This document shows positions 9,444-15,618 of a stretch of 24,811 nucleotides of DNA, piece by piece (the first letter of the stretch is position 1; each line of letters begins with the position of its first letter). This stretch comes from a virus (lineage: Duplodnaviria > Heunggongvirae > Uroviricota > Caudoviricetes). Where the stretch lies: IMG/VR virus record IMGVR_UViG_2537561977_000030, positions 1 to 24,811 of that record; one strand, written 5' to 3'. The notes below the pieces were generated by a model. It had not been told where the DNA came from. It did not search any database and saw only the letters and a program-made list of their open reading frames with translations. A program made the translations under genes and the position numbers.

Positions 9444-10324
9444 ACACTCCTCGTCAGTATTCTGGCGGCCATTGCACTTAATCCCGGAGACATGCGGTTG
9501 AATGCTGTGCCAGCGGCGTTAAGCTGCCCGGAAACGGTATCCAGAGCACCTGCAATATTTCTTTTGTCCACACCACTCAGCGCAGACTGCGCTTGCTGTA
9601 CATACGTGGCTGCCTCACTGGCTGTTCTGGCCAGACTGATGGCTTCGGGCATGGATTCAGAGAGTGCATTAAATGCCGGAACACTTTTCCCCAGAGCTCC
9701 GGATATATTACCCAGTCCGCTCATCAGTCCCGGCACACGGGTCAGTGCGACAACGGGGTTACCCTTCATTTTCTGCGCCACCCGAACAGCACTGATAGTG
9801 GTCTGGAGTACAGACTGCGCCTGTTTCGCACAGTTGACGCCGTTACGGACGAACTGCGCCACCCCGGAAGGCGATGGAACAGCACCAGATACGGCCCCGG
9901 CACCGGGAACCTGCCTGCGTATTGCCGGCGGTTGCAGAGGATTTTTCGGGTCACCGGTGTATTCCCGGAGAGACACGGTGGCACTGACAGCCAGCACGTT
10001 ACCGGTGCTGTCTGTCTGCTCACTGGTTGCGGTCACATCGGTAATCACGAACCAGCCGCGATAGTCACCGTTGCCGAAGACCAGTGCCAGTGCCTGATGG
10101 GCCTTCATGGCTGTTCGCACTCTCGCCAGCTCCACGTCGGGCACACAATAATGCTGATGGAAGACCAGGCTTATCTGGATTTCGTCCAGCCTGTCGCCGA
10201 CGAACTGCAGGCCGGGTTTACCCCCGATGCGGGCATGCTCCGCATAATCGACGCCGGACGTGGCCTCGAAGCCGTCCCAGTAGGTAATCAGCTCAAACTC
10301 AATATCACCCAGTACGGCAAACAT
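9440..10324 (-). CDS. Tail protein (P2 gpU-like / Mu N DNA-circulation N-terminal type)
   Basis: 294 aa; N-terminal FAVLGDIEFEL...RIGGKPGLQFVGDRLDEIQISL... resembles the gpU family. Start shares a base with the tape-measure stop. Confidence 0.55.
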   Translation of the reverse strand: MFAVLGDIEFELITYWDGFEATSGVDYAEHARIGGKPGLQFVGDRLDEIQISLVFHQHYCVPDVELARVRTAMKAHQALALVFGNGDYRGWFVITDVTATSEQTDSTGNVLAVSATVSLREYTGDPKNPLQPPAIRRQVPGAGAVSGAVPSPSGVAQFVRNGVNCAKQAQSVLQTTISAVRVAQKMKGNPVVALTRVPGLMSGLGNISGALGKSVPAFNALSESMPEAISLARTASEAATYVQQAQSALSGVDKRNIAGALDTVSGQLNAAGTAFNRMSPGLSAMAARILTRSV

Positions 10325-12801
10325 CAGCGGTACTCCTTACGTTGTTTCTGAGCCAGCAGACGCTCCAGCATTTTTTCCAGCTCATGCAGGCTCATATTCA
10401 GGGCTCCAGTCAGCCCGGCAGGCGCTGCGGTTTCCTTACCATTGAGGAAAAACTGAGGATTAAAGCTGACCTGGATACCGCCAGACGCTCCACCGCCAGT
10501 TGCAGTTGCGCCACGGCCTGAATATCCGGCAGCCATGATTTCCGGCGACGGGATACGGGGAACATCCGGTGTCATTTCAGCGGCCAGGCGCTGCCCGGCC
10601 AGTGCAGCAAGCGGAGTGGTTCGCTGCAGGCCAATGGCGGCACCCTGCGCGATATTGTCACCAAAGCCCATAAACACGCGACTCGGCGAATGGATGCCCA
10701 GCTTTTCGCTGAACCAGTCACTGATGCTGTCACCCATTCCGGTTACGCTGGTTTTGAGCGACTCCCATTTGTTTCTGATGCCATTTATCAGCCCGTCGAT
10801 AAGATGACCACCGAAGTCGGTGAACTTCGCCGGCAGATCAACGCCGAGATATTTCAGCGCAGCCGCAAAGGCTTTATAAAGCAGCCCCGCCGGAGACCAG
10901 TTAACCAGCAGTTTACCAGTTCCCGCGATGCCGCCGTTAAAGGCTTCCTGAATGTCAGCCCAGCGCTGTTTAAACCAGCTACTGACTGCGCCCCAGTTGT
11001 GGTAGATAAGGTAAGCTGCTGCCGCAACGGCGGTGATAACGAGACCGATGGGATTCATCATCAGCGCCCGGCCAATCCAGAGAACGGCGCGTGCAGCAAT
11101 CATAAAACCGCGAACGAGGCTGCCCGTCAGAACTTTGCTGAGTTTCAGTCCTCCGCGGGTCAGTCGGCTGAATCCAGTGACAAGCCAGCGTAATTTGCCA
11201 CCTTCTCCGAGTGCGGTAGTCAGTCGACGCCAGTTGGTCCGGAGTAAAACAGCAGTTTTCCAGACGTTCACAAAGGGGGAAATAAGAAGATTCAGCCCCA
11301 GTTTGAGGCCAATAGTCGCTATCTTAATCGCAAGGAGCGCACTGATGAGCTTAAAAGCCCCACTGACAAATTGCGGGTGAGTCGCCACCCAGTGTTTTGC
11401 CCCCTGAATGAGTGGGATCAACTCCTGTGCCAGAGAAATAAAAGAGGGGGCGAGCTGATCGCCCAGCGTAATAGCCAGATCGCGACTGCTGACCATAAGC
11501 GCTTTAGTGGCTTCAGAGGGAGATTTCAGCCGCTGATCGTAAGCACTGGCAAGCAAATCGTTATCCGCAGCCCTGAGGGCACCGGCACGAATCTCGCGGT
11601 ACCTGTCCATGTTGGCCAGCATCGGGCGGATAAACGCCATGACCTGCATATCCGCGAACATATCGCCCAGACCAAAGTTTTTTGCCAGAGCCTGAAGTGC
11701 CTCATCTCTTGCCGTATCATTTTTTATTTTCATGGCGGATTTGAACCCGGCCAGAGCTTCGGGGCTTTTTGTATTGAGGTAACGCTCTATAACACTCAAC
11801 ATCCCTTCAATCGGAGAGATCCCCGCAGCCTTATAACTCGCAATAGATCCCTGCAAATCAATACCCAGGTCAGCAAACTGTTTCTGAGTATCGCGGGCAA
11901 AAATTTTGGTAAGAAAGTTTTTAAAGTTATTGGCCGCTTCGTCGGTGGAGCCCGCACCGATTTTTGCTATCTGGAGACTGGCCCCGATTTCAGCAACAGC
12001 CTCTTTTCCACTGGCAACGCCCGCCATCATTGGGGCCAGGGACTGCATCCATTTGACCTGATCCGGAATTTCAAATGACCCCTGATCACCGGCATAAGCC
12101 ATAATATTCTGGACGGCACCAAAATCTCTGGCGGCACCTTTCAGGGAGTTTTGCCAGACAGCGGCCACTTTTGCCCAGTCCTGAGATGACGTGCGTGTTG
12201 CCGTTGCCGCGCGGGCAATATCCGGCATCAGAAAACCGATATCTGACAAGTTATCAATATTGTCGCTGATGAGCGAACCCACCGCCTCCTGCAGCTCATC
12301 CTGATACTGATTGTATTTAAGTGCCCAGCCTTTTATCTGTCCGGCAAGTGCATCCCGCGTTTTATTGTCATATTTTGCGGTGATCGACATATCAATCATT
12401 TTGTCCTGAAAAGACATGGACTGCTGAACGGCCGGGGAAACCGTATGATAAACAGTCTGTGTCATGCCATACGCTTCAAGTCCCTGACCATACAGCGCCA
12501 TGCGGTTAGCTTTCAGCGCATCACTGGTCGCTGATGCCGCTGACAGGCGGCGCTGCTGGCGCTCAATTTGCTCCATGGTGCGGCTTACCCGCAGCAGCTC
12601 GCTGTTGAGACGCTGCATCCGGGAAGAACCCAGTTGACCATAACGTTCTGTTGCACGGGTTAAAGCGTTCTGACGTTCCTGCAGGCGGCGTGAGGTATCG
12701 CTCAGGGAATCAAGCGCACGGCGGGTACCGCTCATTGCAGAACGGAATGTGCTGCCAATCATCCCGCCGATAACAACGCCGACTGAAAACTGTCCCGACA
12801 T
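10324..12801 (-). CDS. Tail tape measure protein
   Basis: 825-aa ORF with an alpha-helical, Ala/Gly-rich central region and hydrophobic segments, placed between chaperone and baseplate genes. Confidence 0.85.
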   Translation of the reverse strand: MSGQFSVGVVIGGMIGSTFRSAMSGTRRALDSLSDTSRRLQERQNALTRATERYGQLGSSRMQRLNSELLRVSRTMEQIERQQRRLSAASATSDALKANRMALYGQGLEAYGMTQTVYHTVSPAVQQSMSFQDKMIDMSITAKYDNKTRDALAGQIKGWALKYNQYQDELQEAVGSLISDNIDNLSDIGFLMPDIARAATATRTSSQDWAKVAAVWQNSLKGAARDFGAVQNIMAYAGDQGSFEIPDQVKWMQSLAPMMAGVASGKEAVAEIGASLQIAKIGAGSTDEAANNFKNFLTKIFARDTQKQFADLGIDLQGSIASYKAAGISPIEGMLSVIERYLNTKSPEALAGFKSAMKIKNDTARDEALQALAKNFGLGDMFADMQVMAFIRPMLANMDRYREIRAGALRAADNDLLASAYDQRLKSPSEATKALMVSSRDLAITLGDQLAPSFISLAQELIPLIQGAKHWVATHPQFVSGAFKLISALLAIKIATIGLKLGLNLLISPFVNVWKTAVLLRTNWRRLTTALGEGGKLRWLVTGFSRLTRGGLKLSKVLTGSLVRGFMIAARAVLWIGRALMMNPIGLVITAVAAAAYLIYHNWGAVSSWFKQRWADIQEAFNGGIAGTGKLLVNWSPAGLLYKAFAAALKYLGVDLPAKFTDFGGHLIDGLINGIRNKWESLKTSVTGMGDSISDWFSEKLGIHSPSRVFMGFGDNIAQGAAIGLQRTTPLAALAGQRLAAEMTPDVPRIPSPEIMAAGYSGRGATATGGGASGGIQVSFNPQFFLNGKETAAPAGLTGALNMSLHELEKMLERLLAQKQRKEYR

Positions 12802-12876
12802 AGTGGTTAACCTCCGGGGAAGGTGAAAAGACGTGGGGGGATAACGCAGAACAGCCGCTGCTGGCGGCTGTCTGTA

Positions 12877-13134
12877 CTATGATTTGTCGCCGTACTCGCT
12901 TCTGATTTGCTCTTCAGCCTGCTCCAGCCACATCTCCAGATCGTCAGTATCGAGGGCATCAATCTCCCCCGGCTGAAACCTGAACCACCTTGCCAGCAGC
13001 CCCTGCGCCTGCGTCAGCGCCTTCGTTGCTCTCACCCATCCCCGTGACGAGCTGAAATCGTTTCTGCAACTGCAGGTAATCAGCCAGGTCCATATTGTCG
13101 AGATCTTCCGGGAGAAGACCAGTACTGCGGGCAA
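12877..13134 (-). CDS. Frameshift-extension ORF of the tail assembly chaperone (E'-like)
   Basis: Overlaps the chaperone ORF in the +1 (equivalently -2) frame and ends just before the tape measure, the position conserved for chaperone frameshift products. Confidence 0.5.
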   Translation of the reverse strand: MPAVLVFSRKISTIWTWLITCSCRNDFSSSRGWVRATKALTQAQGLLARWFRFQPGEIDALDTDDLEMWLEQAEEQIRSEYGDKS

Positions 13135-13294
13135 TCAGCGGTTCGTCCCAGTCAGCCGGGTTTTTGCTGATTTTACGTACTTGCTTCAGGTCTTTGACCG
13201 TCAGACGTTTCAGTTCAACCAGCTCAATTCTGGTGCCTGCAGCAGTGGTGAAGGGATAAGACAGCGTAAAAATATCGGATGAGGTCTGTGACAT
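12959..13294 (-). CDS. Tail assembly chaperone (P2 gpE / Mu gp41-like)
   Basis: 111-aa acidic ORF directly upstream of the tape measure; AGGAG 7 nt before the ATG. Confidence 0.65.
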   Translation of the reverse strand: MSQTSSDIFTLSYPFTTAAGTRIELVELKRLTVKDLKQVRKISKNPADWDEPLIARSTGLLPEDLDNMDLADYLQLQKRFQLVTGMGESNEGADAGAGAAGKVVQVSAGGD

Positions 13295-13366: not shown

Positions 13367-13370
13367 GAAG

Positions 13371-13384
13371 GGGCCGGAGCCCCT
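13371..13384 (-). terminator. Hairpin followed by a T-rich tract on the minus strand, downstream of the 73-aa ORF
   Basis: GGGGCCGGAGCCCC has a 5-bp GC stem and is followed on the minus strand by TTCTTCTT. Confidence 0.4.
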
Positions 13385-13390
13385 GTGATG

Positions 13391-13612
13391 TCAGCAAGTG
13401 CGAAAACCCTTGCAGTTACGCAGGAAAGCGATGAGAAGCGTCTTTCCCTCCGCTTTGCCTGTGCCGGAGAACCAGTGGTCGGGCGGCTCCCATGCTTCAA
13501 TCAAATCGGCCAGTTTGCGGGCCTTTGAACGTGTGCAGTCAATCGGGTCATTGGTTTTACGGGTGTTACCCCCCGGAATATCAAGGAGGGTAAACCACGT
13601 ACCATTTGACAT
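13391..13612 (-). CDS. Hypothetical 73-aa protein between tail tube and chaperone (possible moron)
   Basis: ORF only; weak ribosome-binding site; has its own downstream hairpin; sits where this tail-module layout normally has no gene. Confidence 0.35.
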   Translation of the reverse strand: MSNGTWFTLLDIPGGNTRKTNDPIDCTRSKARKLADLIEAWEPPDHWFSGTGKAEGKTLLIAFLRNCKGFRTC

Positions 13613-13663
13613 GCCCGGTGACGCACAGCGCCCCCCCTTTGTCAGTCAGTTCAACGCTCACCG

Positions 13664-14185
13664 TCAGCCCCCGATATTGATACGGTAGTCAGTCAGCTGG
13701 TCAACGCCACCGACCCGGAAGATGTTGGCCAGATAGTCCAGTTGCAGCAGCTCTTCACCATCCAGTACCTGTCTGATATACGTGCAGGTGAAGCTACTGG
13801 AGAACTCGGCGTTCTCGTGCTGTTTGAACGTCCCCAGCGGGTTCTTCTTGAACATAATCGTCAGGAAGGTGACCAGCGGGATTTCGTCGATCAGCCCCTG
13901 CGAACTGTAGCGCTGGACGCTTGAGCGACACTGCAGCGCCAGCGACCTGTACGGGTTCGCGGCAGACAGCATCGCATCGCGGTAAAAGCTGTTCCATTTG
14001 ATTTCGCCTTCCAGTTTGTCAAAACCAGCCGGGAGTTCCACCTTACCCACCATCCCCAGTGCCTTGTGTTCCTGCATAATCATGGAGACATCGGGGAGTT
14101 TAACTTCCTCAGCCCGTCCCAGCAGGTTAGTACCATCCAGATAGATGTTGGCATTCGTGATTCGGTTTATCTCAATCTTTGACAT
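13664..14185 (-). CDS. Tail tube protein (Mu gpM / P2 FII-like)
   Basis: 173-aa ORF immediately after the sheath gene; start shares a base with the sheath stop. Confidence 0.8.
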   Translation of the reverse strand: MSKIEINRITNANIYLDGTNLLGRAEEVKLPDVSMIMQEHKALGMVGKVELPAGFDKLEGEIKWNSFYRDAMLSAANPYRSLALQCRSSVQRYSSQGLIDEIPLVTFLTIMFKKNPLGTFKQHENAEFSSSFTCTYIRQVLDGEELLQLDYLANIFRVGGVDQLTDYRINIGG

Positions 14186-15618
14186 CAGTTGCCCCCTTTC
14201 AGGGTTAACAGGTATTCCGAGGTGATCTCCGTCTCATACGTCAGCCGCTCCAGCGGTGGCGGCGGCGTGTATTTGTAGCTCAGCAACAGGTGACCGGCGG
14301 CCAGCTCCGTCTCCGGATTGCGGGCCGGATCAAACCAGCAACGGAAGCCCAGTACCGCACCATCACCAGTCATTTTGCGACCGTAGGCGTTGACCGACTC
14401 CGTCAGTGCATCAATCAGCGCCTGAGTAATCGGCATGTCGATGTACTGCTGGCTGAAGTAACGAATGGACTCGTTGATCACATCACCGGTGCGGCGAACG
14501 TTCTCAAAGTTACGCATATGGGTGACCGTTGGCCATGCTGCCGTCCGGTTACCCCACAGACGAAGGCCGCTGCCGTAACTGCTGAATACCGTGGTGATCC
14601 CCTGTTCGTTAAGCAGGTTCACCTCGCTCTGCGGATCGTCAATCATTGCCGACAGCTGGCGCTCCACGCCGGTGATCCCCAGAATTTCCTGATTGGAGGA
14701 TGACCACCAGTACCCTTTGTCCAGGTCGACTCTGGCACGCAGGCCCGCCGCACGCTGGCTCAGTGGCTCCAGACGCTCCGTGTTTGTCACCGGGTCATAT
14801 ACCTTCACATGCGGGTAGCACAGGCGGACACGGTCAGAGCTGGTATTGAAATTAATGGTGCCTTCCGGGCCACGTCCCGCCAGAGCCTGCGCAAAAGTGG
14901 TACCAACCGGCGCATCAATATAGGTTACTGCTCCCAGTTTCTCAGCCATGGCGATAAGCTCAACCGAGACGCTGTTCTGGGTGCAGAATACCGGCGCAAT
15001 CAGGATTTTGGCGAAGTAGCCAAACAGGTTAAAACTGTCGTTAAGCAGCTTCATGCCGGTACGGTTGCCCGCCGCGTTAACGGCACCGATGATATCAGCC
15101 GGGGTGACTCTGGTCGGATCAGCATAGTTATAGCTGGCCTTCACCGTTGCATCTGCAGCAATGCTTTTACCCAGGTTAGTAATCACCCCGGTCTGTGCAT
15201 CAAGCGAGTAGTCCTGACCTTCAACATAAGGCTGACCGTCGCTGTCCGGTTTCAGTACCAGCTGCGCGACCACCGGATTAGCCAGCCGGGCTCTGCCTGT
15301 CGCCTTGTCGAACGACACATTCTCACTGACCACAGCGGTTTTATGCACAGACGGATCGAGTACGTTAATGACCAGAACGGTGCCTGCACCATGGTCATAA
15401 ATCGCATCCAGCGCCTGCGGAATGGTAAAGCCGTTGAACTGGCTGCCAAATGCTGCAGCGTCTTTCTCAGACAGGCACTGTACCAGCGTATTGACATCCC
15501 CCATTGGTGCGGTACCAATCAGGCCAATAACGGCAGATTTCACCGTTTTAACCGGGCGGGCACCGTTTTCCACTTCAATGGTTTCGGGACCATGCAGATA
15601 GTTAGCTGACATGGGCAT
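14185..15618 (-). CDS. Contractile tail sheath protein (Mu gpL / P2 FI-like)
   Basis: 477-aa ORF with sheath-like sequence, upstream of the tube gene. Confidence 0.85.
   Translation of the reverse strand: MPMSANYLHGPETIEVENGARPVKTVKSAVIGLIGTAPMGDVNTLVQCLSEKDAAAFGSQFNGFTIPQALDAIYDHGAGTVLVINVLDPSVHKTAVVSENVSFDKATGRARLANPVVAQLVLKPDSDGQPYVEGQDYSLDAQTGVITNLGKSIAADATVKASYNYADPTRVTPADIIGAVNAAGNRTGMKLLNDSFNLFGYFAKILIAPVFCTQNSVSVELIAMAEKLGAVTYIDAPVGTTFAQALAGRGPEGTINFNTSSDRVRLCYPHVKVYDPVTNTERLEPLSQRAAGLRARVDLDKGYWWSSSNQEILGITGVERQLSAMIDDPQSEVNLLNEQGITTVFSSYGSGLRLWGNRTAAWPTVTHMRNFENVRRTGDVINESIRYFSQQYIDMPITQALIDALTESVNAYGRKMTGDGAVLGFRCWFDPARNPETELAAGHLLLSYKYTPPPPLERLTYETEITSEYLLTLKGGN

Follow-up and report, generated by a model that had tools for sequence, protein, structure and literature searches.

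The window analysed here is the whole 24,811-nucleotide (nt) stretch of IMG/VR virus record IMGVR_UViG_2537561977_000030 (Caudoviricetes), and our subject is its tail assembly chaperone gene together with a second open reading frame (ORF) that overlaps it in another frame. On the minus strand the genes run in the order sheath (14185-15618; PF04984 and PF17482), tube (13664-14185; PF04985, E=2.9e-53), chaperone (12959-13294) and tape measure (10324-12801; 825 amino acids (aa); PF10145, E=2.2e-20, and phrog_28 'tail length tape measure protein', E=4.3e-133), and genes further upstream match Mu Gp36 and Gp37. The chaperone ORF, which we call frame 0, encodes a short protein of 111 aa (11.9 kDa), named 'phage tail assembly protein' in RefSeq. 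Residues 9-83 match PF10109 Phage_TAC_7, whose title is 'Phage tail assembly chaperone proteins, E, or 41 or 14' (E=8e-21; 74.3 bits against a cut-off of 25), and the protein also matches phrog_166 'tail protein' (E=5.5e-31). These matches and its position make the ORF equivalent to gpE of P2, gpG of lambda and gp41 of Mu.

A stretch of open frame between 13134 and 12877 on the minus strand forms the second ORF, which ends in TAG (12879-12877), and the tape-measure start (12801) lies 75 nt beyond that end. Codon first positions fall at 1 mod 3 in the chaperone and at 0 mod 3 in the second ORF; because its phase sits one base downstream, the second ORF is in the +1 (equivalently -2) frame relative to the chaperone, whose own stop is the UGA at 12961-12959. 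Tailed phages are textbook examples of programmed frameshifting in their tail chaperone genes, and annotation practice and tools look mainly for -1 heptamers. The overlap of the two open frames (13134-12959, 176 nt) contains no X_XXY_YYZ heptamer; the only one in the chaperone ORF, A_AAC_CCG at 13163, lies upstream of the +1-open region, at a place where the -1 frame is closed. A sequence-only reading of the window had described a tail-chaperone pair ahead of the tape measure, overlapping by about 175 nt in a +1/-2 rather than a -1 relation and lacking a canonical heptamer in the overlap. The PF10109 match with the tube and tape-measure flanks, the codon phase, the extent of the open frames and the position of the single heptamer bear out that description in every detail. 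The second ORF is unannotated in the RefSeq record that we inspected, and the annotations of phages PhiKM and KP12 give the short gene only.

Conservation and coding character of the +1 frame

The closest relatives comprise 81 loci with a tblastn match, of which 78 are from IMG/VR and three are the phages PhiKM, KP12 and Phi06_2974 B, and the +1 relation is kept in all of them except two isolated indel cases (L075 and L081). A scan of species representatives, with one genome per species, added 27 loci, and 23 of these are also +1; the exceptions are three Pasteurellaceae loci, which are -1, and L091, which is fused through a 1-nt deletion. The hosts in this second set include Trabulsiella, Dickeya, Serratia, Lelliottia, Lonsdalea, Symbiopectobacterium and Arsenophonus, as well as Lysobacter, Rivihabitans, Pandoraea, Verminephrobacter, a metagenome-assembled genome (MAG) of Hydrogenedentes, and others. 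The same arrangement is found in the Burkholderia phages BcepMu and phiE255, the Pseudomonas phages Bise and Komp_PAO1_1 and a Ralstonia phage, so that overall the layout spans Enterobacterales, Burkholderiales, Pseudomonas phages and the Hydrogenedentes MAG, in more than 100 loci from several bacterial classes. A sequencing indel that had merely disguised an ordinary -1 layout, which the sequence-only reading had allowed for, is excluded because the +1 layout is conserved across so many loci. The prophage segment itself is common, being present in 641 of 5,426 complete E. coli genomes (about one in eight), and a second IMG/VR scan with the alignment as query recovered close relatives only. 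One member of the collection, L087 (NZ_PJIO01000028.1, 'Arthrobacter sp. GMC3'), is an 8.2-kb low-coverage contig in an actinobacterial assembly whose chaperone is 92-94% identical to that of the E. coli prophage; the contig, which is also in IMG/VR, is probably contamination.

The pattern of substitution identifies which frame is constrained at each point. Codon-position entropy over 57 unique enterobacterial sequences shows the frame-0 wobble position to be the most variable as far as nt 237 of the gene (0.70-0.94, compared with 0.26-0.41 for position 1). Starting at nt 241, the highest variability moves to frame-0 position 1, which is the wobble position of the +1 frame, and after nt 283 the frame-0 wobble position is nearly invariant (0.00-0.04, against 0.42-0.57). 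This is the substitution pattern of a translated frame, and in these alignments it points to strong purifying selection on the +1 frame. The +1 peptide is recognizable from E. coli to Burkholderiales as ...LLARWFRFQPxEIDxL..D.F..W...A..QI..., with LLARWFRFQP its most conserved motif.

What this frame encodes appears to be a domain like P2 E'. The predicted segment read after the shift (12877-13053, minus strand; 58 codons plus TAG) is an E'/T-like C-terminal extension, SSSRGWVRATKALTQAQGLLARWFRFQPGEIDALDTDDLEMWLEQAEEQIRSEYGDKS, in which variation falls on +1 wobble positions. Within the family, 17 of 21 members match PF06528 'Phage P2 GpE', the E'-specific part of gpE+E', at E<=0.1 (best 6.4e-6); the window's own extension reaches 14.5-17.1 bits (E=0.004-0.025), short of the 23-bit cut-off, and matches P2 E' in a pairwise BLASTP comparison at E=0.027. 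The domain order of the predicted fusion, PF10109 followed by PF06528, is the same as in P2 E+E'. No start codon in the +1 frame is conserved among the relatives, and L112 and L113 have none at all. HMMER, run over 1.84 billion representative proteins, recovered the E'-like part only in short ORFs of 33-112 aa and never in a natural in-frame fusion, and we found no solved structure or NCBIfam model matching the fusion or the E' profile. Overall, the two ORFs are probably the equivalent of the P2 gpE/gpE+E' (lambda G/GT) pair in a contractile-tail prophage with neck genes like Mu gp36 and gp37.

The interval of the predicted frame change and the CGA_UUU_C element

Comparing where each frame closes in the relatives confines the change of frame to a short interval. 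Upstream, stops close the +1 frame as near as three codons before the aligned UUC, with a UGA three +1 codons before it in L084, L085, L108, L109 and L112. Downstream, frame 0 ends at widely differing distances past the aligned UUU: after one codon in the Hydrogenedentes locus L113 (GGG UUU UUU CGC UGA), which sets the tightest bound; after 8-9 codons in L107 and L106; after 10 in a 90-aa E. coli variant, whose stop at codon 91 (13024-13022) is seen in L039, L040 and protein P0016 and is recorded on 914 contigs; after 14 in the Symbiopectobacterium/Arsenophonus group; and after 24 in a common 104-aa variant. Intersecting the upstream opening of the +1 frame with the frame-0 stop of L113 therefore leaves an interval of ~14 nt, 13065-13052, which reads AG AAA CGA UUU CAG, and it is at this interval, with its CGA_UUU_C, that the codon-position entropy passes from the frame-0 to the +1 pattern. 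What follows Phe80 in frame 0 appears dispensable, since its length ranges from 1 to 31 codons among relatives. The 176-nt overlap would then be merely the open stretch of the +1 frame, with the shift placed by these comparisons at codon 80, 31 codons before the frame-0 stop; the part of the +1 ORF upstream of 13053 is probably not translated.

Within the interval, conservation singles out CGA_UUU_C (13054-13060, minus strand) as the predicted +1 shift cassette, made up of Arg79 (13060-13058), Phe80 (13057-13055) and the skipped C at 13054. The Phe80 codon is TTT in 73 of 73 unique +1-type sequences, GC-rich hosts included, and all +1-type relatives examined have a C next to it in the alignment; UUU with this C is the sole universally conserved element inside the bounded interval. 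The background is quite different: TTT accounts for 0-44% of Phe codons in most of the sampled loci (range 0-76%) and for less than 25% in five of the six GC-rich loci sampled, and two Phe codons of the E' part alternate between TTT and TTC (37/25 and 51/11). The Arg79 codon is CGA in 70 of 71 unique +1-type sequences, while the other invariant Arg uses CGC 50 times, CGT 13, CGG 4, CGA 4 and AGG once (CGA in 4 of 72), and all other conserved residue columns show at least two synonymous codons each. At 13057-13054, then, a frame-0 UUU is followed by a pyrimidine and the predicted product continues in +1, as at a UUU_Y site. The motif also follows the frame, in that the -1 homologues carry A_AAG_GGA (Pasteurella/Haemophilus) or T_TTT_TTG (Wolbachia WO and P2, in which the site is annotated), and Mu has a -2 site of its own.

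Several observations weigh against so direct an assignment. The CGA is not essential, because it is absent in BcepMu, phiE255, Bise, Komp_PAO1_1, L092 (CGG) and L113 (UUU); the phages keep UUU_C behind a different 5' codon (UCC_UUU_CGC in BcepMu, GCC_UUU_CGC in phiE255, GCA_UUU_CAA in Bise and GUG_UUU_CGG in Komp_PAO1_1). Efficient +1 slippage usually needs a rare, slow codon after the slip site, and here the codon 3' of UUU is not consistently rare or slow, being CAG in the window and CAA, CAU, CUG, CGG or CGC elsewhere. No conserved Shine-Dalgarno (SD)-like element or RNA structure lies near the site among the relatives compared, and RNAalifold on 20 diverse sequences gave -1.43 kcal/mol without covariation, the fold of the window itself having z=-0.8. 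The downstream end of the interval hangs on the single MAG locus L113, the next bounds lying 8-10 codons further on. Finally, if the shift took place one or two codons upstream, dual coding (Arg-Phe in frame 0, Asp-Phe in +1) could account for part of the constancy of CGAUUUC.

The window site also has none of the features of prfB-type shifting: no stop adjoins the UUU, and neither the window nor the CGA-type relatives shown have an SD-like sequence upstream. SD-like purine runs before UUU occur only in two members that are CGA-less, namely Komp_PAO1_1 (GAGGUG) and L113 (AGGGG-UUU-UUU_C, with UGA one codon later). L113 deserves a note of its own: around 1105-1125 it reads CAG GGG UUU UUU CGC UGA, with the SD-like AGGGG 3 nt before UUU_C, a layout that recalls the prfB +1 site and is unlike that of the CGA-type members.

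Predicted products, alternative explanations and neighboring features

A general scheme can be proposed. Most ribosomes would stay in frame 0 until the UGA (12961-12959) and produce the 111-aa chaperone, and a minority would move into the +1 frame at CGA_UUU_C (13060-13054). At its simplest, tRNA-Phe could re-pair on UUC because the frame-0 UUU precedes a pyrimidine: the peptidyl-tRNA-Phe on UUU would move to the overlapping and better-paired UUC, and AGC (13053-13051) would be the next codon read. Alternatively, CGA in the P site may act as a Ty3-like 'special' codon, with Phe-tRNA binding UUC out of frame; both versions would give the same protein. CGA is a rare codon, read through an inosine:A (I:A) wobble. 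We suggest that the conserved CGA serves as a stimulator, perhaps through a weak I:A pair in the E site. The literature offers some footing, as UUU_Ynn is especially +1-prone in bacteria (Atkins et al. 2016, PMC5009743), influenza PA-X arises by a +1 shift within UCC_UUU_CGU, +1 shifting is favored by weaker E-site pairing, and CGA is among the few codons able to replace GCG in the non-slippage Ty3 site (all PMC5009743).

The predicted fusion would have 138 aa (15.8 kDa) and the form ...LQLQKRF-SSSRGWVRATKALTQAQGLLARWFRFQPGEIDALDTDDLEMWLEQAEEQIRSEYGDKS, joined at ...LQLQKRF|SSSRGW...; under the UUU_C model its junction peptide would be ...LQLQKRFSSSRGWVR..., and its +1-encoded region would contain LLARWFRFQPGEIDALDTDDLEMWLEQAEEQIR. 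Lambda G/GT and P2 E/E+E' suggest by analogy that the shared N-terminal domain would bind the tape measure and the +1-encoded E'-like domain would recruit the tube protein, and the frameshift efficiency would set the ratio of the short product to the fusion. Overall, we believe that a programmed +1 shift at CGA_UUU_C probably yields this gpE+E'-type fusion, on the strength of the conservation and the bounds described above, and we are more confident still that a +1-frame fusion of some kind is made.

Of the alternatives, the one that survives best, although we regard it as unlikely, is a +1 shift a codon or two before UUU is reached, for instance with the poorly decoded CGA in the A site and an abundant Asp-tRNA reading the out-of-frame GAU to give ...K-D-F..., so that the invariance of the motif would come from dual coding. 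The +1 frame is indeed open for three codons before UUC in all relatives, Arg-Phe in frame 0 together with Asp-Phe in +1 would alone force C-G-A-U-U-U-Y, and CGA is rare and decoded through an I:A wobble. Nonetheless, the codon before CGA is variable (AAA, AAG, ACC, GCC, GGC, GAC or GAG) and unable to re-pair in +1, UUU_C is retained in members without CGA, the CGG of L092 is silent in frame 0 and would turn Asp into Gly in +1, and in the +1 reading many different residues precede Phe (D, G, C, P, H or F).

We think it highly improbable that the E'-like ORF is translated alone from an internal start without any frameshift, which is what gene callers take for granted. A candidate start exists in the window, a GTG at 13035, seven codons after UUC and with an SD-like GGGGA upstream, and the E'-like ORF has been called as a short gene by itself in phrog_8286 and in several database entries. 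Starts in the +1 frame differ in both place and type between relatives, however, and are missing altogether from L112 and L113; the constraint on the +1 frame begins upstream of most of them, and the homologous P2 E' domain is produced solely as the E+E' fusion (PMC3091744).

Less probable again is a Mu-like -2 (or +1) shift on the G5 run at 12966-12970 (minus strand), in GCC GGG GGA GAU UGA, where GCC_GGG_GGA_GAU (12970-12962) lies two codons before the frame-0 stop and the UGA would act as a pause. The run does resemble the verified Mu site CGG_GGG_CGA, seven codons before the gp41 stop, and in a -2 shift the tRNA-Gly on GGA could re-pair on GGG and the tRNA-Asp on GAU could re-pair on GAG. 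In about half of the close relatives, nevertheless, the frame-0 stop precedes the run by 21 nt; the 90-aa variant (914 contigs) terminates 63 nt before the stop of the window, and frame 0 also closes well ahead of the run in L100, L106, L107 and L113. The run itself varies (CCU GGG, CCA GGG, CCG AGU) through changes that are synonymous in the +1 frame, selection on that frame begins ~80 nt upstream of it, and the product would omit the conserved LLARWFRFQP. That the +1 layout is an assembly error or a decaying pseudogene, with only the short chaperone made, has next to no probability: many indel-type 'fused' versions with junctions at differing homopolymer runs do exist in public data, but the same layout recurs in more than 100 independent loci and in the isolated phages PhiKM, KP12, BcepMu, phiE255, Bise and Komp_PAO1_1, and purifying selection on the +1 frame is strong.

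Two further candidates were set aside. A +1 site of the form GGG_N at codon 85 (13042) fails because L079 has GGC_C there and L113, L107 and L106 end frame 0 at or before the aligned position, and transcriptional slippage was rejected for want of a long A or T run at the site. The database 'fusions' of 138-144 aa are no guide to the junction; they are judged to be assembly errors because their junctions fall at different homopolymer runs, and P0093 and the loci L075, L081 and L091 are isolated indel cases of a like kind. Single-ORF 'fused' versions in public assemblies (P0001-P0009, P0020 and P0093; L075, L081 and L091), whose junctions at varied runs (G4, G5, A5 and others) are typical of indel errors in sequencing, could mislead searches for the natural junction.

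Other features surround the pair. A stable hairpin, CAGCCGC-CAGCA-GCGGCUG (12847-12874, minus strand), lies in the 75 nt that separate the end of the +1 ORF from the tape-measure gene, and the 91-nt region that includes it folds at -26.7 kcal/mol (z=-3.56), with none of 200 shuffles as stable. This hairpin is not a classic terminator, because it has no U-tract; effects on translational coupling or on the stability or processing of the mRNA are conceivable. Within the tail operon, a second hairpin that is terminator-like, AGGGGCTCCGGCCCCT and then TCTTCTTAAT (13369-13384, minus strand), separates a small ORF from the start of the chaperone gene, and its sequence is also present in phage PhiKM. 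The small ORF (73 aa; 13391-13612, minus strand) stands between the tube and chaperone genes, is intact with an ATG start, and had no match in NCBIfam, the sole library scanned for it. PhiKM annotates a 93-aa version with a GTG start, a reading that is broken in the window by a length difference around a G7 run (13631-13637) just past the tube stop.

Comparison with known frameshifting systems

The closest likeness is to P2 gpE/gpE+E', which occupies the same place, between the tube (FII) and tape-measure (T) genes, has the same PF10109 to PF06528 architecture, although the PF06528 match of the window's own copy is below cut-off, and yields products of 91 and 142 aa, compared with 111 and a predicted 138 aa here. 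In both, the shift site, predicted in the prophage, lies at Phe codons that end the N-terminal domain, within three aligned residues of one another. The differences lie in the shift itself: P2 uses a -1 shift on the canonical tandem heptamer T_TTT_TTG (Christie et al. 2002, as cited in PMC3091744), six codons before the stop, whereas the prophage would use a +1 shift on UUU_C preceded by CGA, 31 codons before the stop (1 to 31 in relatives). A P2-type -1 shift on T_TTT_TTG does not fit the prophage pair, whose E'-like part is in +1 and whose overlap has no heptamer. Phage Mu gp41/gp41-42 offers a second comparison, with its second ORF likewise in +1/-2 and CGA likewise part of the signal, in that case GG_GGG_CGA, on which a -2 frameshift is reported as verified (Xu, Hendrix & Duda 2004; PMC3458567). 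The prophage interval 13065-13052, however, contains neither GG_GGG_CGA nor any other -2-compatible tandem site. The Mu chaperone, like that of the prophage, matches PF10109, though with 24.7 bits it is just under the 25-bit cut-off, and its main family is PF23746.

The site itself most resembles the UUU_Y sequences known to be +1-prone, which include E. coli argI (Fu & Parker 1994), the work of Schwartz & Curran 1997 (also cited in PMC3789692) and influenza A PA-X (Firth et al. 2012), all as cited in PMC5009743. They share with the prophage a frame-0 UUU followed by a pyrimidine and have no need of a stop codon, and the BcepMu gp41 sequence UCC_UUU_CGC differs from the PA-X sequence UCC_UUU_CGU in its last base alone. 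The known cases are translational errors or depend on a slow 3' codon, whereas the prophage site has a variable, common 3' codon and a conserved 5' CGA, and is apparently selected for the making of a structural-assembly protein.

The BcepMu comparison also suggests a correction. In GenBank AY539836 (L195, 2603-3364), gp42 is labelled 'probable lambda G', and gp43 carries the label 'T-equivalent by ribosomal slippage'. Homology points instead to gp41 (PF10109) and gp42 (+1, E'-like) as the pair, which would be joined at UCC_UUU_CGC, and gp43, an Arg/Gly-rich ORF overlapping the tape-measure start, looks spurious. For the related case of KS10, known here from its genome paper alone, a FluMu gp41-like chaperone domain is present and the authors state that they recognized no frameshift site (PMC2628397). 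We found no earlier description of a conserved CGA_UUU_C or UUU_C +1 site in the P2-E/Mu-gp41 family; coverage of the literature was incomplete, and Xu et al. 2004 or Summer et al. 2004 may hold one.

The functional paradigm for all of these pairs is lambda gpG/gpGT, which belongs to a non-contractile tail and uses a -1 shift on the heptamer G_GGA_AAG. Pairs of the lambda type give two products with a shared N-terminus in a fixed ratio; their genes lie between that of the major tail protein and that of the tape measure, and virions contain neither product (PMC5009743). Both products of such pairs are required for tail assembly. The prophage pair has the same location, a recognized chaperone family and a conserved second ORF without a start of its own. 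If the assignment made here is correct, a simple rule, namely that the PF10109 domain ends at a frame-0 UUU_C and the E'-like ORF is in +1, would repair the annotation of the clade, and the site would add a selected bacterial use of UUU_Y with an unusual conserved 5' CGA.

A bolder proposal, which we offer as tentative, is that CGA_UUU_C is a self-contained, selected bacterial +1 cassette in which CGA replaces the usual stimulators (slow 3' codon, stop, SD or RNA structure), and that the P2 E/E' family has switched among -1 (T_TTT_TTG, A_AAG_GGA), -2 (Mu) and +1 (UUU_C) at essentially one domain junction. Were the cassette self-contained, it would provide a natural E. coli model of stimulator-poor +1 frameshifting, and re-annotation would be due for hundreds of prophages and for BcepMu, the type phage. 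The kind of system is not new, since tail chaperone pairs of different phages are already reported to use -1, -2 or +1 shifts (PMC5009743). In this context, the prophage pair would take its place beside P2 and Mu as a further arm of one protein family that, if these readings hold, meets the same ratio-setting problem through three shift directions.

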